Positions 8,256-30,121 of a DNA stretch of 64,000 nt are shown here, piece by piece. Location of the stretch: NCBI GenBank assembly GCA_963765245.1, contig CAVXVP010000020.1, forward strand, positions 152,865 to 216,864, in the 5' to 3' direction. The notes below the pieces were generated by a model that worked only from the letters and a program-made list of their open reading frames with translations, searched no databases and had not been told where the DNA came from. Both the position numbers and the translations under genes were made by a program. Every line of letters starts with the position of its first letter. Position 1 is the first letter of the stretch. The stretch comes from an uncultured Chloroflexia bacterium. GTDB lineage: Bacteria > Chloroflexota > Limnocylindria > Limnocylindrales > CSP1-4.

Positions 8256-9112
8256 ATGCCGGTCGAGCCGCCGGTCACCAGCCCGCGCGCCCTGGCCGAG
8301 GCGTATGCGGTGCTCGCCGACGGACCGGCCCGGCCGATCGCGGGCGGCACCGACCTGATGGTCGCGCTGACCGGCGAGCTCGGTGAGCCGCCCGACCGGA
8401 TCCTCGACCTGTGGGGGCTCGACGAGCTGCGCGGGATCGCCCTCGACGGCGACACGATCAGCCTCGGTGCGCTGACGACCTACACGGAGATCCGGCGCTC
8501 TGCGCTGTGCCGCGAGCATCTCCCCGTGCTGGTCGAGGCGGCCGCGACGATCGGCGCGGCCCAGATCCAGAACCGCGGGACGCTGGGCGGCAACATCGCC
8601 AATGCCTCGCCGGCCGGCGACACGCTGCCGGTCCTGCTCGCGGCCGACGCGTCGTTCGTTCTCGGCTCGGCCCGCGGCGAGCGGACGGTCCCGGCCGCCG
8701 AGTTCTGGCCGGCCTACCGCCAGACCGCGCTGGCGCCGGACGAGCTCCTGCTCCGCATCCGGATCCCGCTCCTGGCCGGCCGCGAGCTGCGCTTCCGCAA
8801 GGTCGGGACGCGCCGCGCCCAGTCGATCAGCAAGGTCGTGGTCGCCCTGGGCTGGCGCGACGGCACGCCCGCGGCGCCCTGGACGGACGTGCGGCTGGCG
8901 CTCGGTTCCGTGGCGGCCACGCCGATCCGTGCCCGCGCCACGGAGGCCGCCATCGAGGGCCGGCCGCCGACCCCGAGACGGCCGACCTGGCGGCCGAGAC
9001 GCTGGCCGCCGAGCTGCACCCGATCGACGACGTCCGCTCGACCGCCGAGTACCGCCGGATCGTGGCCGCGCGCGTCGTCCATCGGCTGATCCGCGAGGCG
9101 GGTGGCTGGTGA
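8256..9112 (+). CDS. Xanthine dehydrogenase family FAD-binding subunit (frameshift near 8975)
   Basis: PIAGGTDLMV, IGAAQIQNRGTLGGNIANASPAGD, FRKVGTRRAQSIS, PIDDVRSTAEYRR. Confidence 0.92.
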
Positions 9113-9688
9113 TGACCGAGGCGCCGTCTCCCGCGGACCTCTCGATCGACCGGCTCGACGTCATCGCGCCGGGCGCCTTCGCGGCCGCCGTCGCGCCGCT
9201 GTTCGAGGGTGCGCGGCTCTTCCTCGGACGCCTGGCGATGGCCCGGCCGTTCGGATCGGTCGAGGAGCTCTTCGCCCGCGCACGCGAGATCGCCCACGCG
9301 ATGCCGCTCGACGAGAAGATCGAGCTGATCGATGCGCATCCGCGTCTCGGCGCGCCGCCGGCCGACGTCTCGGCGCTCTCGTTCGTCGAGCAGGGCTATC
9401 AGCGCGACGCCACGGAACGGGAAGCCGAGGCAGCCGCCGCCGAGGCCGAGCGCGACGCACATCGCCACGGAGCTCGACCGGCTCAACGCCGCCTACGAGG
9501 CCCGTCTCGGCTTCCGCTACTGCGTCTTCGTCGCCGGCCGGTCGCGCGCCGAGCTGCTCCCCGAGATGACCGCCGCGCTCGACGCGGACCGCGACGACGA
9601 GATCGAGCGCGCGCTTGATGCCGTCATCGACATCGCCCGCGACCGGTATGCGACCCTGACCGCAGCAGCAGCGGAGGATCCGGCGTGA
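9112..9688 (+). CDS. uraD: OHCU decarboxylase (frameshift near 9460)
   Basis: LFEG, RPF, LIDAHPRLG, SFVEQG, LNAAYEARLGFRYCVFVAGR, IARDR. Confidence 0.88.
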
Positions 9689-21834: not shown

Positions 21835-24606
21835 ATGCCGCTCGAGGAATACCGCCGCAAGCGCGACTTCGGGAAGACCCCCGAGCCGGCACCGGCCGCC
21901 GTCACGGGCACGACCGGGCGCTTCGTCATCCAGCGCCATCGGGCCTCCCGGCTCCACTACGACTTCCGGCTCGAGATCGAGGGCGTCCTGGTCAGCTGGG
22001 CCGTCCCCAAGGGCCTGACGCTCGATTCGTCGGTCAGGCGCATGGCGGTCCACGTCGAGGACCACCCGATCGAGTACTTCGACTTCGAGGGCGTGATCCC
22101 GTCGAAGCAGTACGGCGCCGGCGACGTGATCGTCTGGGACTGGGGCACCTGGGAGCCCGAGGCACCGACCCTCGACCCGCGCCGTGCCATCGAGGACGGG
22201 GAGCTGAAGTTCGTCCTCCACGGCGAGAAGGTCAAGGGCCGCTACACGATCGTCCGGACCAGCGGCCGGCGGCAGAAGGGCGACGATCCGTCGGCTCGGG
22301 CGTTCGAGGACGACGAGGGTCAACAGTGGCTGCTGATCAAGAAGCGCGACGAGTTCTACGCGGCCGGCTGGGACGCCGAGGACCACCCGCAGAGCGTCAA
22401 GACCGGCCGGACCAACGACGACGTCAAGGCCGACCGCGACGCCCTCTGGAACGGCCAGGCGCCGGCGGCCGCGGCCGAGATCGACCTGACCGGCGCGGTC
22501 ACGGCGAAGATGCCGCCGTACATCGAGCCGATGCTGGCCACGCTCGCCTCGAAGCCGTTCAGCGACCCGGACTGGCTGTACGAGATCAAGTGGGACGGGT
22601 TCCGGGTCCAGGCCGTCGTCAACGAGGGCAAGGTCAAGACCTGGACCCGCGGGCTCAAGGACGCCGAGACCTACTTCCCGCGGCTGCTGTCGCCGCCTTC
22701 GTGGATCGACGCCAAGCAGGCGATCGTCGATGGCGAGGTCGTGGCCCTCGACGAGGACGGGCGCCCGGATTTCTCGCTCCTCCAGACCAAGCTCGGCCAG
22801 AAGGGGGTCGGCGGCCTCGTCTACCAGCCGTTCGACCTGCTCTATCTCGACGGCCGGCTCGCTGCTCGATGTCCCGCTCGAGGATCGCAAGCGACTGCTC
22901 CAGAGCGTGCTCAAGGCCCACCCGCGGGTGCGCTTCGCGTCGCACATCGTCGGCGACGGCGAGGCGTTCTTCGAGGCCGCGGGGGCCAACCACCTGGAGG
23001 GCATGATCGCCAAGCTCCGACGGAGCCGGTACGAGCCGGGCAGGCGATCCAAGGCCTGGCTGAAGCTGAAGGTCCGGCCCGAGCAGGAGCTGGTCATCGC
23101 CGGGTGGACGCCGGGCGAGGGCAACGCCCGGGATCTCGGCGCGCTGGCGGTGGGCTACTACGACGACGGCAAGCTGAAGTTCGCCGGCAAGGTCGGGTCG
23201 GGCTTCACCGCCGCGGTCCGCAAGGAGCTGCTCTCGAAGCTCAAGCCGCTCGCGGTCGACGACTCGCCGTACGACGAACCGCCGCCGAAGGACTACAAGG
23301 GTCGCTGGGGCGGCGACCTGGGGTCGGTGACCTGGGTCCGGCCCGAGCTCGTGATGCGCGCGGAGCTCGGCGGCTGGACGCGTGACGGCGTCGTCCGCCA
23401 GACCGCGTACAAGGGACTCGAGCCGGGTCGCGACCCGCTGACCGTCCATCGGGAGGTGCCGGTCGCGACGGCCGGCGCGGTCCGTGCCGCCGAGGCCGAG
23501 ACGCCCGCGGCCGACCGCCAGTCGAGCGATGATCGACGGCATGCCGAAGACACCGACCGGAAGGCGACGAAGGCAACCAAGGCAACGAGCGCCGCAAAGG
23601 CACGCCGCGGCCGCGACGCCCGTCGACCGACGTCCCCGACGACTGGCGCATCACCGACGACGAGCTCGCCGCGCTCGATGCCCTCGGCAAGGAAGGCGTC
23701 TGGCACGCCAACGGCGTCGACCTCAAGCTGACGAACCTCGACAAGCCGCTCTTCGAACCGCGCGAGCCCGACGGCGGCGGCCCGATCACGAAGCGCGAGC
23801 TCATCCGCTACTTCGCGCGGATCGCGCCCGCGATGCTGCGGCACACGAAGGACCGGCCGCTCAACCTGCAGCGGTTCCCGAACGGCGCCGGATCGCAGGG
23901 CTTCTGGCAGAAGGACATCCCGGACACCGCGCCGACGTGGCTGACCCGCTGGCGCGAGACCGGCGTCGATGGTCGGACCGACCGCGACGCCAACGACCAC
24001 CTGATCGCCGACCGCGCCGCGTCCCTGTGCTGGCTCGGCAACCAGGCCAGCTTCGAGATCCACGCCTGGACCGGGCGCCTGCCCGACCCGTGGCAGCCGA
24101 CCTTCGCCTACATCGACATCGACCCGGGCGAGAAGACGACCCTCGAGGAGACGCTCGTCCTCGCTCGGCTCTACCGGACCGCGCTCGGGCATCTCGGCGT
24201 CCGCGGCTATCCCAAGACGACCGGCAAGCGCGGCATCCAGATCTGGATCCCGATCGTCCCCAAGTACAGCTTCGAGCAGACCAGCCAGTGGGTCGAGCGC
24301 GTCTCGAAGGCCGTCGGCTCGACCGTCCCGGAGCTCGTCTCGTGGGAGTGGTCGAAGGGCAACCGGCAGGGCAAGGCCCGCCTCGACTACACGCAGAACG
24401 CCTCGATCAAGACGCTGGTCGCGCCGTATTCGGTCCGGCCGGCGGCGGGCGCCCCGGTCTCGGCGCCGATCACCTGGGACGAGCTCGACGACAAGGACCT
24501 GCGGCCCGACCGCTGGACGATCCGGACCATCGTCGACCGCGTCGCCGAGCAGGGCGACCTGTTCGCCGCGGCCCAGACCGACGCCCAGGAGCTCCCCGAG
24601 GTCTGA
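21835..24606 (+). CDS. ligD: NHEJ DNA ligase D, PE-LIG-POL order (frameshifts near 22860 and 23500-23630)
   Basis: LEEYRRKRDF, FVIQRHRASRLHYDFRLE; YEIKWDGFR, EGMIAK, WLKLK; LTNLDK, LQRFPNG, IDIDP, KTTGKRGIQI, LDYTQN, APYSVR. Confidence 0.93.
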
Positions 24607-24640
24607 CACCGGGACGCCGCCCGCATGGCAGGATTCGACG

Positions 24641-25878
24641 ATGACCGACGACACGATCCGACTGCGCCAGCCCACCGCCGACGAGATCCGAGCCTTCGTC
24701 CAGCCGACCGGCGAGGCGTTCGCCGAAGTGTTCAGCGAAGCCGAGCTGGATCTCGAGCGCCGATTGTGGGAGCTCGATCGGCTCATCGGTGCCGTGGATG
24801 GCGACAGGTGGGTCGGGACCGGCGGCGCGTATTCGTTCGGGCTGACCGTGCCCGGCGGGGAAGTCGCGGCGGCCGGGATCACCATGATCGGCGTCACGCC
24901 GAGTCATCGGCGGCGCGGGATCCTTCGCCTCATCATGCGCTGGCTCTTCGACCAGGCTCGAGAGCGCGGCGAACCGGTCTCCATCCTGTGGGCGTCCGAA
25001 AGTGCGATCTACCAGCACTTCGGGTACGGCATCGGGACGCTCCAGAGCACGTTCGACATCGAGCGCACCCGGATGACCTTCGCCCGGCCGGCGCCGGCGC
25101 TCGGACGGATCCGCCTGATCGATCGCGACGAGGCGACTCGGCTCTTCCCGCCGATCTACGAGGCCGTCCGCGTCGGCATCCCGGGGACCGTGACCCGAAG
25201 CGAGGCACGGTGGCGACTCGACCAGCTCGAGGACGCGGAATGGCAGCGAGCCGCGAACGGCATCAAGTACCTCGCGGTCCTGGAGGTGGACGGCGAACCT
25301 CGCGGGTACGCCATCTACCGCACCAAGTCGGAATGGGGCGAGATGGGGCCGAACAACACGGTCCTCGTGTTCGAGGTCGTCGGTCTCGACGCAGCCGCCG
25401 AGCGCGCCATCTGGGAGTGGATCGCCGGCATCGACCTCGTCGGCCATATCAAGGCTTTGGCGCGGCCCCGTGCCGCATCCGCTGATGCTCCAGCTGACCG
25501 AGCCACGCCGCCTGGGCCTCAACGTGCGCGAGGGCATGTGGCTGCGCCTGATCGACCTGAAGGCGGCGCTCGAGGCGCGGACGTACGGCGCGGCCGGGTC
25601 GCTCACGTTCGAGGTGACCGACGAGTTCTGCCCCTGGAACGCCGGGCGTTGGCGGCTGGAGGTTGTCGGGCGATGGGCGCGGCACGGTGACGGCCTCCGA
25701 CGCCGACCCCGACCTCACCCTCGACACGGCGGATCTGGCGACCACCTACCTCGGCACCTTCACCTTCGCCGACCTGGCCCGCGCCGGCCGGGTGGGGGAG
25801 TGCCGGCCGGGGGCCGTGGCTGACGCGGATCGGTTGTTCGCCACGGCGACGGCGCCGTGGTCCTCGACGATGTTCTAG
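24641..25878 (+). CDS. Eis-like GNAT N-acetyltransferase with C-terminal SCP2-like domain (frameshifts near 25465, 25670)
   Basis: IGVTPSHRRRGIL, LWASESAIYQHFGYG, WLRLIDLKAALEARTY, FCPWNAGRWRL, LATTYLG. Confidence 0.88.
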
Positions 25879-25940
25879 GGTCGCTGACAGGCCAAATTTC
25901 ACCGATCGACGATCTCGACAGATCCCGGTAGCGTGACGCC

Positions 25941-26201
25941 ATGGGATCAGCCAGCCGACGCTGGGCACTCAACTTGGTCATCCATGCGCGTGGCGACGAG
26001 CTACGCGACGAGGTGACTCAAGGTCTGCCCACGATCGTGAAACTCGTGCTCGAAGACGTCGAGCTGCGTCCAGGCGACGCCGAACTTCTCGCCGATGCAG
26101 TCATCACCGACCTCGACGGCACCGAAGCGCGCCTCGGCGTCGCGTCGTTCACCCTCGACGAACTCGCGGAGCGATATCCCGACCTACGGTTGGCCTGGTA
26201 G
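25941..26201 (+). CDS. Hypothetical protein (86 aa)
   Basis: TAGCGT -10 six nt upstream of ATG; acidic ORF with coding-like codon use. Confidence 0.6.
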   Translation: MGSASRRWALNLVIHARGDELRDEVTQGLPTIVKLVLEDVELRPGDAELLADAVITDLDGTEARLGVASFTLDELAERYPDLRLAW

Positions 26202-26250
26202 CGATCGGTCCGCCCTGGTCACCCAGAGGGTCGGACCGTATCCTGGCTAG

Positions 26251-28191
26251 GTGGGCGATACCGAGTATCCCGAGGCGGAACACGGGTGGAGTTCGTCGTT
26301 CCCCGCGTTCCACGAAGCTGCCGCTCCTTACATCCGAGATTCGCTGAGCGCATTCCTGCACGACGCCTCATTTCAGCAGATCAGAGCCTGGGACGATTCG
26401 ATCAAGCCGCTTCAAGTCGAGGTCGGCGAGGTCCTACGGCAGGACTCGGCAGCAAGTGGCTACACGGCCATCCTGGAATATCAACTCCCGCTCGAACATC
26501 GGCGACCGGACGTGATCCTCCTAATCGGTGGTGTCGTTCTGGTCCTTGAACTCAAGGGAAAGAACCGGGCGGAGATAGCTGACGTTGATCAGGCAGCGGC
26601 CTATGCACGCGACCTGCGCGCATATCACAGGGAGTGCGCAGATCGGCCCGTTCAGGCCGCTCTGGTCCTAACCCGCGCCTCGGGTCGCTTGGGTGAGGTA
26701 ACCGGGATTCCAGTCGTCGGTATCGACGCGGTGGACGACCTTGCCGCCGAGTATCGCGGCGGCCCTTCATTGGTGCCCTTATCGCGTTCCACATTTCTAG
26801 ATCCCTCGGCATACCGTCCACTGCCAACGATCGTCGAAGCAGCGCGCGAGCTCATGGAGAGCGGCACGCTTCGTCGCATCGAACGGGCCTATGCGGTTAC
26901 ACAGCCAACGCTTGACTACGTCTCGGCAATTGCTCGAGACGCCGCCGCCACCAATTCCCGGCACTTGGTCCTCCTCAGCGGGTTGCCTGGCACAGGAAAG
27001 ACGCTTGTCGGATTACAGCTCGCCCATGCTCGGTTCTTGGACGACTTGGCCGTCCAACGTGCAGAAGGCAAGCCAACGGCTCCAGCCGTGTACCTGTCCG
27101 GGAATGGTCCGCTGGTCGAGGTGCTCCAGTACGAGTTGAAGGGCGCCGGGGGTGGCGGCCGGGCGTTTGTGCGTGCGGTGAAGGCATACGTCGAGACGTA
27201 TTCGCGTCGTCCACAGGCCGTTCCGCCGGAGCACGTCCTGATCTTCGATGAGGCTCAGCGAGCGTTCGATGCCGAACAGGTGCGGGCGACGCATAAAGAC
27301 GGACCGGACGACGGGAAGTCAGAACCCGAGCATTTCATCGAATTTGCCGAACGAATCCCAGGCTGGTGTGTCGTCGTCGGCTTGATCGGGTCCGGCCAGG
27401 AAATCCATGTCGGTGAGGAGGCCGGAATCGGTCAATGGAGTGCGGCAATTGAGGCATCTGCGGAAGCAAGTCAGTGGATTATCCACGCTCCGCCAGGACT
27501 CGCCGGCGAACTCGGGAACCTTCCTGTGCGTATCGACAAGCGCCTCCATTTGGAGGCCGAGCTCCGATATCACCTGGCCACAGACATCCACGCGTTCGTT
27601 TCAGCGCTGCTCGGTGGGCCACTCGATGAGCGACTTTCGGGGATCGCGGCCGCATTGCAGGAGGCGGGATTTCACCTCCGGATCACGCGGGACCTTGAGA
27701 GCGCCAAGGTGTACCTGCGCCAGCGGTATGAAGGCGAACCTGACAAGCGCTTCGGCCTGATCGCCTCGTCTCGGGACAAGCATTTGGAAGGCTTTGGTGT
27801 ACCCAACGACTGGAATTCGACACAGCGCGTTCGGCCTGGTCCATGGTTCGGGGAAGGCGATGACGATCCTCTCGGGCGGTCATGTCGAACCTTGCGCACC
27901 TGCATCACAGAGTTCGGGTGCCAGGGTCTGGAACTTGACGCGGCCCTGCTCGCCTGGGGAACCGATTTCATCGTTGAGAATGGCGACTGGTCGAACCGGC
28001 TCGCCAAGCGGTACCAACAGCCAGCCCAGATCAAAAACGCCCTCCAACTCCGCATCAACGCGTATCGCGTCCTGCTTACGAGGGCACGCGACGCAACCGT
28101 TGTCTTTGTCCCACCGCTGCCCGTCCTCGACGCGACGTACGAGGCTCTCTGCCAAGCCGGTTTTCGACAGCTGCTTTCGGACGGCTCCTAG
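26251..28191 (+). CDS. PD-(D/E)xK nuclease fused to DUF2075 / Schlafen group 3-like SF1 helicase
   Basis: LEY...RPDVILL...VLELKG...DQAAAY; Walker A SGLPGTGKT; Walker B LIFDEAQR; TEFGCQGLELD; NAYRVLLTRAR; no frameshift. Confidence 0.88.
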   Translation: MGDTEYPEAEHGWSSSFPAFHEAAAPYIRDSLSAFLHDASFQQIRAWDDSIKPLQVEVGEVLRQDSAASGYTAILEYQLPLEHRRPDVILLIGGVVLVLELKGKNRAEIADVDQAAAYARDLRAYHRECADRPVQAALVLTRASGRLGEVTGIPVVGIDAVDDLAAEYRGGPSLVPLSRSTFLDPSAYRPLPTIVEAARELMESGTLRRIERAYAVTQPTLDYVSAIARDAAATNSRHLVLLSGLPGTGKTLVGLQLAHARFLDDLAVQRAEGKPTAPAVYLSGNGPLVEVLQYELKGAGGGGRAFVRAVKAYVETYSRRPQAVPPEHVLIFDEAQRAFDAEQVRATHKDGPDDGKSEPEHFIEFAERIPGWCVVVGLIGSGQEIHVGEEAGIGQWSAAIEASAEASQWIIHAPPGLAGELGNLPVRIDKRLHLEAELRYHLATDIHAFVSALLGGPLDERLSGIAAALQEAGFHLRITRDLESAKVYLRQRYEGEPDKRFGLIASSRDKHLEGFGVPNDWNSTQRVRPGPWFGEGDDDPLGRSCRTLRTCITEFGCQGLELDAALLAWGTDFIVENGDWSNRLAKRYQQPAQIKNALQLRINAYRVLLTRARDATVVFVPPLPVLDATYEALCQAGFRQLLSDGS

Positions 28192-28974
28192 GTGGCCGAT
28201 CGCAAGCTGTCTCTCGATGAGGCCGTGATGGGAGCCGCTGAGGCACCGCCATCAATCCGGATTGAATTTCGGGATCGGATCGCCGAACACGGTGCGGCTG
28301 GCATCGAGCGGGTTGTGCCTTGGCTGACGGATCCAAAGATGGCGGCATTCGCCGTCCGAGTGATCGCCCGAGCAGCACAGTTTGGGGCCGCCGACGATGC
28401 CCGACGAGCGTTGCAAATGGCCATCGCGGGCCTATCGGAGCCGGCGCGGTCGGATGCCGCATCGGCACTCGAGGCACTTGGGGTGCGACGCCGCCAGAGT
28501 CCCGGAAAACGGGGTTCAACGGTCACAACGACCCCCGCCAACGCCACTTCACTTGAAGACTTGATGGAGGACAAGGTTTACAAGCGGCGGGATCTCCACC
28601 AATCCGGTCTCGGTGGCAACTGGCAAAGGGGAATCAGCTACCCAGCAGGCGGAACGTACGTCCTTCTCTTCTCGGATCCAGATAGCAAAGTCGAATGGGG
28701 ATATCAGGACAGCTGGGACGGACCAAACACTTATCGCTACTACGGCGAGTGGGATGGAACCGGCGACATGCTGATGCGAGGCGGAAATCTGGAGATCGTT
28801 GAGCGAAGTCCGGAGATCTACCTTTTCGTCAAGGCGCCCAACGGCCACCGCTATGCGGGCATATTCGAACTTCAATCACAGGAACGAGTACCGGCGACGC
28901 GAGACAACAAGCAATTCATGGCTCTTGTCTTCATGCTCGTGCGACGATCAGCAAAGTCTCAGGAGGGCGGTTAG
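28192..28974 (+). CDS. Helical N-terminal domain plus SRA/YDG-like domain protein
   Basis: KRRDLH..GLGGNWQRGISYP...LLFS...GYQDSW...YRYYGE..GTGDM..RGGN...IYLF...RYAG pattern as in SRA domains of 5mC-dependent McrA-like nucleases; no HNH motif. Confidence 0.7.
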   Translation: MADRKLSLDEAVMGAAEAPPSIRIEFRDRIAEHGAAGIERVVPWLTDPKMAAFAVRVIARAAQFGAADDARRALQMAIAGLSEPARSDAASALEALGVRRRQSPGKRGSTVTTTPANATSLEDLMEDKVYKRRDLHQSGLGGNWQRGISYPAGGTYVLLFSDPDSKVEWGYQDSWDGPNTYRYYGEWDGTGDMLMRGGNLEIVERSPEIYLFVKAPNGHRYAGIFELQSQERVPATRDNKQFMALVFMLVRRSAKSQEGG

Positions 28975-29568
28975 CTCCTCGTCGGAGGATTGCGTGAGGC
29001 CTCCCTTGCGAATCGCCAGATTGACGTCGTCGCGGCCCGGCCAATTCGGGTCGTAGATCCGGAGCGTGACTGCGTCGCCCTCGATTTCGTAGGCATAGGC
29101 GAGGACCTGGTGGCTCTGGGTCAGGTGGAACGGGTTGAGTCCCGAGTGCCGGACGAGGCCCACCATCGCGAGCCGGTCCGCGTCGATGTCGACTTTGATC
29201 CGCGGCCACTCGACGTCCCAGGTTCGCCGCGACGCCCGCTCCGGGCTGATGGCGCCCATCCACCAGAAGCGGAGTGGCGTCCGCAGCCAGTCGAGGGACT
29301 GGACCTGGCGACGAACCAGCGCCCGAAATAGCGGCGACCCGTTCGCCGGCGCCTCGGCATCCGCGGGCACCGCCGCCCCCGCCTCGAACCGCTCGCGGAC
29401 GAACCAGCTCATGCCGCCGCAGAGGCCAGCCGCCGCGTCGCCGATGCCGATCCAGCGGGGATCGAACGGGCCGAAGCGCACGGTCGGGCCGGGCGGGAAG
29501 CGGTTGGCGAAGCGCAGACCGTGGGTGCTCGGCAGGAAGCCGGGCACGGCGTTCGACTCGAGATTCAC
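28948..29568 (-). CDS. Hypothetical protein with papain-like Cys-His-Asp motif
   Basis: GLCGGMS, SHQVLAY, RIYDPN; TATCGT -10 six nt upstream of GTG. Confidence 0.65.
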   Translation of the reverse strand: MNLESNAVPGFLPSTHGLRFANRFPPGPTVRFGPFDPRWIGIGDAAAGLCGGMSWFVRERFEAGAAVPADAEAPANGSPLFRALVRRQVQSLDWLRTPLRFWWMGAISPERASRRTWDVEWPRIKVDIDADRLAMVGLVRHSGLNPFHLTQSHQVLAYAYEIEGDAVTLRIYDPNWPGRDDVNLAIRKGGLTQSSDEELTALLRLC

Positions 29569-29638
29569 ATGCTCACGATACGAGAACCAGCCGTGGCGCC
29601 CGCCGACCCGTAACAGGGCGGGGCTACCATGGACGACC

Positions 29639-30121
29639 ATGGGCGAACGAACCAGCGCCGGGATCCTGCTCTACCGGCGCGGCAGCAACCCCGACATGCC
29701 ACTCGAGGTCCTTCTCGCCCACCCGGGCGGGCCGTACTTCGCGAAGCGCGACCTTGGCGACTGGACGATCCCGAAGGGCGAGCCGGACGGCCGGCACGAG
29801 CCGCTCGATGCGGTCGCGCGTCGTGAGTTCGAGGAGGAGACGGGGACGGCGATCGACCCCACGGTGCCGGCCATCGAACTCGGATCGATCATCCAGAAGG
29901 GCGGCAAGGTCGTCCACGCCTGGGCGGTCGAGGGCGACCTGGATCCGGCCACGGCGCATTCCAACGAGTTCGAGATCGAGTGGCCGCCGCGATCCGGCAA
30001 GCGTCAGCGAATCCCGGAGATCGACCGGGTCGAGTGGTTCGGCCCCATCGAGGCGCGGCGGCGGATCAAGCCGACGCAGGCGCCGCTGATCGACCGGCTC
30101 GAGGAGGCCCTCGGCCGCTGA
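29639..30121 (+). CDS. NUDIX hydrolase
   Basis: SAGILLYR, VLLAHPGGP, WTIPKGE...VARREFEEETG, EIEWPPRSG, PEIDRVEWF. Confidence 0.9.
   Translation: MGERTSAGILLYRRGSNPDMPLEVLLAHPGGPYFAKRDLGDWTIPKGEPDGRHEPLDAVARREFEEETGTAIDPTVPAIELGSIIQKGGKVVHAWAVEGDLDPATAHSNEFEIEWPPRSGKRQRIPEIDRVEWFGPIEARRRIKPTQAPLIDRLEEALGR

Follow-up and report, generated by a model that had tools for sequence, protein, structure and literature searches.

We analysed a stretch of 64,000 nucleotides from an uncultured Chloroflexia bacterium (hereafter the window: positions 152,865 to 216,864 of the forward strand of contig CAVXVP010000020.1, GenBank assembly GCA_963765245.1; lineage Chloroflexota, Limnocylindria, Limnocylindrales, CSP1-4) and identified within it a pair of directly abutting genes, here called gene 1 and gene 2. 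Gene 1 encodes a PD-(D/E)xK nuclease joined to a superfamily 1B (SF1B) helicase of the DUF2075 family. Gene 2 encodes a small protein in which a helical N-terminal domain (N-domain) is followed by a domain predicted to adopt the SRA fold. The pair is best read as a predicted variant of ATP-dependent type IV restriction, conserved and made of two components, and is probably a restriction enzyme directed against modified foreign DNA in a two-protein form not described before. Against phages with modified DNA, bacteria rely mainly on type IV restriction enzymes, which also serve as tools for mapping 5-methylcytosine (5mC) and 5-hydroxymethylcytosine (5hmC). To our knowledge, the well-studied type IV enzymes all fuse their reader to a nuclease (SRA-HNH enzymes, MspJI, SauUSI) or to a motor (McrB). 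If our reading is true, the pair would instead couple a free-standing reader to a nuclease-helicase that also occurs without one.

The two genes and their parts are listed below, numbered from the first letter of the window (aa, amino acids; pLDDT, predicted local distance difference test).

26251-28191, forward strand: gene 1, 646 aa, GTG start
26464-26670, forward strand: PD-(D/E)xK nuclease core of gene 1 (aa 72-140; E76, D87, E100, K102, Q114, Y118)
26959-28113, forward strand: DUF2075 SF1B helicase domain of gene 1 (aa 237-621)
26980-27003, forward strand: Walker A of gene 1 (GLPGTGKT, aa 244-251)
27244-27261, forward strand: Walker B of gene 1 (FDEAQR, aa 332-337)
28189-28194, forward strand: TAG/GTG junction, zero gap, one shared frame
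28192-28974, forward strand: gene 2, 260 aa, GTG start, without nuclease domain
28213-28476, forward strand: helical HEAT/alpha-repeat-like N-domain of gene 2 (aa 8-95), a separable module
28495-28539, forward strand: disordered linker of gene 2 (aa 102-116; pLDDT below 50, variable in the alignment)
28549-28944, forward strand: predicted SRA-fold domain of gene 2 (aa 120-251), alpha/beta
28624-28626, forward strand: putative thumb residue Q145 of gene 2, with G147 nearby in the SRA domain
28702-28704, 28708-28710 and 28738-28740, forward strand: putative pocket residues Y171, D173 and Y183 of gene 2

Gene 1 encodes a nuclease-helicase

Gene 1 matches the PADLOC model PDLC05014 (candidate PDC-S41) with E=1.2e-120, its residues 13-631 falling on positions 6-634 of the 657 in the model, and the Pfam family PF09848 (SLFN-g3_helicase/DUF2075) with E=7.8e-58 over residues 237-621. 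Judged by its sequence, it is a full-length member of the PADLOC candidate family, with the architecture of Nhi and Nhi-like proteins. An earlier note on this DNA, made from the letters alone, had described gene 1 as an intact PD-(D/E)xK nuclease plus a superfamily 1 helicase, and the alignments bear this out. The motifs RRPD87, E100-L-K102, Q114xxxY118, GLPGTGKT and FDEAQR are all present; E76, D87, E100, K102, Q114, Y118 and the Walker A and B motifs do not vary across an alignment of 44 sequences and show 97% conservation or more among 119 homologues, and the helicase patterns GxPGxGKT and FDEAQRA are likewise invariant among the 44 sequences. Pfam evidence for the nuclease is weak (HSDR_N, 0.025, and NucS_C). 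In an AlphaFold2 (AF2) model of gene 1 (pLDDT 80.8, predicted template modelling score 0.80) the nuclease core has a beta-beta-beta-alpha-beta arrangement, and a Foldseek search with this model returned the SF1B helicases RecD, SLFN11/14, Dda, Dna2, Upf1 and nsp13.

Gene 1 belongs to a very large family: at least 3885 clusters match at E<1e-10. The PADLOC model for Nhi matches gene 1 in the P-loop region alone (E=0.018), and homology to the Nhi protein of Staphylococcus epidermidis was not found; neither gene 1 nor gene 2 has a match to McrB or McrC in Pfam or PADLOC. An 856-aa open reading frame (ORF) for gene 1 in genome G652 was considered as a new fusion and set aside: its extra ~210 aa are N-terminal and have no Pfam match, and they probably come from an over-extended gene call.

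Gene 2 carries a predicted SRA domain with a conserved base-flipping pocket

The earlier note had taken gene 2 to be SRA-like, a view that a structure model and family profiles were needed to substantiate. By its own sequence, gene 2 returned nothing from Pfam (E<=10), NCBIfam or PADLOC, nor from the PDB by phmmer. Its homologues (n=55) are almost all from Limnocylindrales; some of them have weak matches to PF26348 (SRA_ScoMcrA), and SAD_SRA (PF02182) is matched by only six of 42 family members, the best at 0.0075. A profile of the whole-protein family, searched against the PDB, found only designed helical repeats/alphaRep proteins, through the N-domain. The AF2 model built from the family alignment (pLDDT 88.5) consists of a six-helix N-domain, a linker and an alpha/beta C-domain. 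When this model was compared with the PDB by Foldseek, the best 44 matches were all SRA domains, with SUVH5 reaching E=4.9e-7 and a target-normalised template modelling score of 0.62-0.70; the other SRA matches include SUVH6, KRYPTONITE, UHRF1/2, MspJI, AspBHI, TagI, ScoMcrA and SauUSI. Moreover, a broader SRA profile in which gene 2 is included (A4) matches the SRA domain of ScoMcrA (5zmn) at 2.9e-7.

Profile A4 pairs Q145, G147, Y171, D173 and Y183 of gene 2 with Q392, G394, Y416, D418 and Y428 of SUVH5, respectively, and across the gene 2 family each of the five is either invariant or conserved at 90% or more. In SUVH5, Q392 plugs the gap of the flipped base, Y416 and Y428 stack against the flipped 5mC or 5hmC, and D418 reads that base at its Watson-Crick edge (PMC4740795). 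The C-domain of gene 2 is, as modelled, an SRA fold with conserved base-flipping residues. Neither an HNH nor another nuclease domain was found in gene 2, whether by Pfam or in the model, which holds just the helical N-domain and the SRA domain; the lack of an HNH agrees with the first reading of the sequence.

Relatives of the gene 2 SRA domain are found in SRA-HNH, EVE-SRA-HNH, EVE-SRA-NOV_C and EVE-SRA-NUDIX proteins. The three-domain EVE-SRA proteins (P0258, P0275 and P0314) have two different modified-base readers per chain, and the NUDIX form has a NUDIX hydrolase in place of a nuclease.

The reader gene accompanies the nuclease-helicase gene

The two genes abut with zero gap, as had been claimed: gene 1 ends in ...TCC TAG, gene 2 starts directly with GTG GCC..., no base intervenes, and both are in one frame with this single TAG between them. 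A relative with 86% identity, on a contig from an independent metagenome, has the identical 1941-nt spacing and also a zero gap, which argues that the stop codon between gene 1 and gene 2 is real. Read-through of the TAG would yield a protein of ~907 aa, similar in length to the natural fusions of 914-930 aa described below.

Adjacency was examined by tblastn at the 14 Chloroflexota species loci having any flanking sequence, and a gene 1 homologue lies directly beside a gene 2 homologue in 14 of 14. The order of the genes varies among these loci: gene 1-gene 2, gene 2-gene 1 (L006, L012) and convergent (L009, L013). Five pair loci (L007-L009, L012, L013) lie outside the LigD/eis neighbourhood, and another metagenomic pair has the order gene 2-gene 1 with a 4-bp overlap. 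Additionally, we scanned 401 genomes (the class sample) for PDC-S41, for full-length proteins composed of N-domain and SRA domain (N+SRA) and for C5 DNA methyltransferases (C5-MTases). PDC-S41 was present in 14 of the 401 genomes (3.5%) and full-length N+SRA in seven. Gene 2 is adjacent or fused to gene 1 in six of these seven, counting G456 as adjacent, in which the 3' end of gene 1 is seen at the contig edge (L003); in the seventh, G277, contig ends cut both genes. Every assessable N+SRA protein adjoins a gene 1 homologue, and the dependency is one-way: the reader requires the nuclease-helicase, not vice versa. Where the flanks of a solo gene 1 could be called, it is a single gene of low GC content at third codon positions (GC3) amid core genes.

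In three species genomes (L014-L016), gene 1 and gene 2 form one ORF of 914-930 aa. These fused single-chain forms make up the L014-L016/G730 clade of the gene 1 tree, with support of 100/100. Counting the three fusions as three events was considered and rejected: the tree puts them in one clade, leaving one event and the separate type of P0199, in which DUF2075 is joined straight to SRA and the N-domain is absent. The gene 1 tree mixes paired with solo forms, which forces at least three changes, and sister taxa differ in gene order yet keep the adjacency. The co-occurrence of DUF2075 with nuclease-less SRA genes, proposed in the earlier note as a check, is thus seen in many genomes, in varied orders and contexts, and as a fusion in one clade.

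The pair lies in a variable restriction hotspot

The pair stands between the genes eis and orf230, in a slot whose content varies from genome to genome. Its other features are the following.

25900-28980: accessory islet of low GC content, comprising orf86, gene 1 and gene 2, within the variable eis-orf230 slot
25941-26201, forward strand: orf86, a small conserved ORF at the slot edge, not part of the system
28948-29640, reverse strand: orf230, a conserved 230-aa protein without family match, at the other edge of the slot

The GC content drops from ~0.70 in the surroundings to 0.56-0.62 across roughly 25.9-29.0 kb, a region with a value of ~0.61 as a whole. GC3 is 0.67 in gene 1, 0.63 in gene 2 and 0.74 in orf86, compared with 0.85-0.97 in LigD, eis, orf230, NUDIX and DsbH; both ORFs of the pair are intact. 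The A/T-richer, frameshift-free insert between eis and high-GC genes that was noticed on first reading is therefore real in its composition as well as in its reading frames.

Of the at least 20 same-genus genomes listed for the class sample, a single one matches the gene 1 model, namely the genome of the window, a metagenome-assembled genome (MAG) of 3.9 Mb and 76% completeness; G456, of the same genus, keeps only the 3' end of gene 1, at a contig edge. In G744, again of the same genus, the slot is empty and eis and orf230 are ~430 bp apart. The slot of G680, another same-genus genome (L073 14407-17574), holds a 1055-aa low-GC3 PLDc_2-ResIII-Helicase_C-DUF3427 protein beside orf86. This is the SauUSI architecture, with the logic of nuclease, helicase and SRA-like reader in a single chain. 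The slot of G546 (L075 about 8500-9460), likewise of this genus, holds a fragmented C5-MTase. Since it is empty in G744, occupied by a SauUSI-type gene in G680 and by a C5-MTase in G546, the eis-orf230 slot behaves as a restriction/defence hotspot. An alpha-2-macroglobulin-like gene of 1698 aa takes up the remaining slot in G680, and ORFs of 194 aa and 171 aa adjoin the C5-MTase fragments in G546. A repeat search and the ORF list showed neither noteworthy repeats, direct or inverted, nor an integrase or a tRNA bordering the islet.

Relation to known systems

By analogy, the pair most likely corresponds to SauUSI divided over two proteins, with a nuclease and a helicase of other families. SauUSI (PDB 7clg), like the pair, combines a nuclease, a helicase/translocase driven by nucleoside triphosphates (NTPs) and an SRA-type reader of flipped bases; its own parts are a phospholipase D (PLD) nuclease, a superfamily 2 (SF2) helicase and a DUF3427/SRA-like reader, all on one polypeptide. 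The pair, in contrast, has a PD-(D/E)xK nuclease, an SF1B DUF2075 motor and a ScoMcrA-type SRA, its reader is separate and optional and fused in one clade only, and it possesses an extra HEAT-like N-domain.

Other systems share some of these parts. Nhi (S. epidermidis SERP2475) and the Nhi-like proteins (Millman et al. 2022) resemble gene 1 in having an N-terminal PD-(D/E)xK nuclease followed by a DUF2075 SF1B helicase, and both are validated single-gene anti-phage proteins. Nhi, Nhi-like and PDC-S41 are described as single-gene systems in which a reader subunit is absent, whereas the pair has a reader gene. ScoMcrA and TagI (SRA-HNH) resemble gene 2 in their ScoMcrA-type SRA with conserved base-flipping residues; unlike these enzymes, gene 2 is without HNH, and the neighbouring ATP-dependent protein would supply the nuclease. 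McrBC is, as predicted for the pair, a two-protein, NTP-dependent and modification-dependent system in which reading and cutting lie on different chains. The division of labour differs: McrBC joins its reader to an AAA+ GTPase motor and keeps the nuclease (McrC) apart, whereas the pair joins motor to nuclease and keeps the reader apart. The two systems are made of unrelated protein families. Finally, DUF3427-DUF3883 enzymes (the McaZI group) adjoin DUF2075 NTPases, and a possible joint action has been suggested (Lutz et al. 2019, PMC6765204). The McaZI group thus resembles the pair in placing a modification-sensing protein beside a DUF2075 NTPase. Its reader protein differs from gene 2 in having its own PD-(D/E)xK nuclease (DUF3883) and a DUF3427 reader, where gene 2 has a ScoMcrA-type SRA, and a HEAT-like domain, fusions or systematic co-occurrence are not reported for the group (PMC6765204).

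The earlier note had not recognised the arrangement as a named system, which stands in part: gene 1 does fall within the PADLOC candidate PDC-S41 and is Nhi-like, and the two-protein version is probably undescribed. Our literature search returned no paper with 'PDC-S41' and none with both 'Nhi-like' and 'SRA domain'.

Predicted mechanism and alternative explanations

We consider it fairly likely that the pair forms a split, modification-dependent restriction module, with gene 1 as the ATP-driven effector and gene 2 as an optional targeting subunit. Gene 1 can occur, and would presumably act, by itself. When gene 2 is present, its SRA domain would flip a cytosine-type base from duplex DNA and hold it between Y171 and Y183, while D173 would read that base at its Watson-Crick edge and Q145 would fill the vacated gap. 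Given this pocket (Y171, Y183, D173 and Q145), the most likely target of gene 2 is a modified cytosine (5mC, 5hmC or one akin to these) carried by phage or plasmid DNA that enters the cell. After binding to DNA, gene 2 would bring or license the nuclease-helicase, which would unwind or translocate using ATP and then cut. We infer, along with the modification that is read, a physical interaction of the two proteins, an anti-phage activity, and a mode of action by which gene 2 may recruit gene 1, activate it or widen its range.

Several points weigh against this reading. Gene 1 is without gene 2 in eight of the 14 class-sample genomes that carry it and is paired or fused in six, and two long metagenomic contigs likewise carry a solo gene 1; these solo occurrences imply that the reader is dispensable for gene 1's own job. 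PDC-S41 is itself only a candidate defence family, and dependence on DNA modification is not reported for Nhi as published. Gene 2 lacks a Pfam SRA match of its own, and its residue alignment with SUVH5, weak alone (E=0.91), rests on the fold match. A docking role of the N-domain is unproven, and the domain is not specific to DUF2075. C5-MTases are present in 53 of the 401 class genomes (13%) and in none of the seven genomes with the pair or the 14 with gene 1, a pattern that fits an attack on 5mC and is non-significant (chance ~0.37 for the seven and 0.14 for the 14). Finally, the pair is known from one class of uncultured bacteria only. The split pair proposed in the earlier note has accordingly to be amended: its core stood, in that N+SRA is always beside gene 1 where this could be assessed, and the reader has become an optional add-on, or accessory, because gene 1 lacks it in those eight genomes.

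The same solitary occurrence of gene 1, together with the fact that Nhi and Nhi-like function as single genes, could suggest that gene 1 is an Nhi-like defence that needs neither a partner nor DNA modification, and gene 2 a regulator or self-protection factor with no part in targeting. We regard this as unlikely. Its self-protection variant seems improbable as well: here gene 2 would bind host or hemi-modified DNA, or the helicase, and restrain the nuclease until infection, antitoxin-like or through self-marking. Tight coupling and fusions would suit any stable complex, including an inhibitory one. A safety-critical restraint, however, should not have been lost by over half the lineages, with the solo forms scattered among the paired ones on the tree, and no pair genome has a C5-MTase with which to mark self DNA with 5mC. 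Moreover, the SRA domains closest to that of gene 2 are joined to nucleases directed against modified DNA, and a SauUSI-type enzyme sits in the same slot of a sister species.

It appears quite improbable that the pair serves in DNA repair or the processing of damage, with the SRA domain flipping damaged or mismatched bases and the nuclease-helicase processing the lesion. This idea draws on the neighbourhood of the slot, which adjoins LigD (non-homologous end joining) and a NUDIX gene, on the fusion of the N-domain to an OGG-like glycosylase fold elsewhere, and on the precedent of Dna2 and RecD, SF1B nuclease-helicases that act in repair. It is difficult to reconcile, however, with a patchy distribution (3.5% of class genomes, essentially one lineage in the genus), a foreign codon composition and a site that is empty in the sister genome G744. 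The other slot occupants are restriction-type genes, further N-domain genes adjoin GmrSD, NERD and ResIII genes, and the pair is found away from LigD in L007-L009, L012 and L013. Hardly any weight can be given to the notion that gene 1 and gene 2 are unrelated chance neighbours in one hotspot. A variable slot does gather differing cargo, and gene 1 also occurs solo. Nonetheless, the adjacency survives order swaps, strand inversions and different genomic contexts, and all assessable full-length N+SRA genes adjoin a gene 1 homologue. Two independent kinds of gene fusion effectively refute chance association, and such fusions are unlikely to be assembly artefacts given the three separate species assemblies.

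The DUF2075 helicase family includes the human antiviral Schlafen proteins. If the split restriction module is true, it would tie the DUF2075/Schlafen helicase family to the reading of DNA modification, and an SRA reader that steers a Schlafen-type (DUF2075) helicase would set a precedent, in prokaryotes, for modification-based targeting of this family. It would also show how a generic Nhi-type effector gains target specificity by acquiring a small accessory gene. The natural split, fused and solo forms allow a direct comparison, and the reading offers a concrete functional hypothesis for the PADLOC candidate PDC-S41.

The N-domain is a reusable module

An exhaustive profile search gave 1578 matches, among which the N-domain and the SRA domain occur independently of each other. 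The N-domain is found alone or ahead of at least 15 unrelated C-terminal modules, including an OGG-like glycosylase fold. It is confined to the class, occurring in 13 genomes of the phylum sample of 401, and of the 17 N-domain loci in that sample only the N+SRA locus had a gene 1 homologue nearby. A dedicated role of the N-domain as a DUF2075 docking adaptor was considered and rejected in its simple form, given the other N-domain loci without a gene 1 homologue. Loci that illustrate the range of N-domain settings are given here.

L041 4611-8847: operon of an SF2 helicase, DUF429, N-domain and NERD
L044 6175-7185: fusion of N-domain and OGG-like fold
L046 4139-7553: N-domain gene overlapping an 815-aa GmrSD_N gene
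L050 6695-10500: operon of an N-domain gene with a GHKL (HATPase_c_3) ATPase

The neighbourhood tally covered 48 operon neighbours of N-domain genes, with housekeeping read-through genes mixed in. NERD (four times), AAA_22 (three times), ResIII and AAA_16 (twice each) recur among the 48, and GmrSD_N, PDDEXK_1 and HATPase_c_3/4 are single matches. The N-domain is a reusable module in defence-like settings and not a DUF2075-specific adaptor; it may serve in docking, DNA binding or oligomerisation. More tentatively, and possibly rather than probably, it might be a lineage-specific plug-in that couples interchangeable base-reading heads to varied nuclease or NTPase effectors. The heads would be SRA, the OGG-like glycosylase fold and a dozen or more further C-terminal domains, all uncharacterised, and the effectors would comprise the DUF2075 nuclease-helicase, GmrSD, NERD nucleases with SF2/ResIII helicases, and the GHKL ATPase. 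If this were true, Limnocylindria would own a modular sensor-subunit system for type IV-like immunity, of which the present pair would be one instance.

The window's genome contains a second N-domain gene, on contig C16, but just one DUF2075 gene. This second gene (G000:C16:67585-67872, reverse strand; locus L048 6666-7376) encodes 236 aa with an uncharacterised C-terminal part. A 179-aa gene of uncharacterised function lies directly upstream of it, and there is no DUF2075 gene nearby in L048.

Other features of the locus

Between eis and gene 1 lies orf86, which shares the lowered GC3 of the pair. It encodes 86 aa, has no Pfam match and is 80-90% identical in syntenic loci, including genomes whose gene 1 shows only ~66% identity. 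It is missing from the non-syntenic pair loci, from the contig of the closest relative and from the empty site of G744, and in G680 it adjoins the SauUSI-like gene. A consensus promoter/terminator scan found nothing, a result that is uninformative at such GC content.

LigD and eis (21835-25823) each appear split across two frames, the SCP2-like C-terminus of eis lying in the ORF 25470-25823 and its GNAT part in 24641-25690, with gene 1 and gene 2 both intact. Either the assembly introduced the frameshifts, as is typical of long-read MAGs, or the two genes are real pseudogenes. At the other edge of the slot, orf230 is convergent with gene 2 and overlaps the final 27 bp of gene 2. Finally, a GC-rich inverted repeat (CGGTCCGCCCTGG...CCAGAGGGTCGGACCG) is located at 26207-26240, between the stop of orf86 and the start of gene 1, and could be a terminator or a regulatory hairpin.

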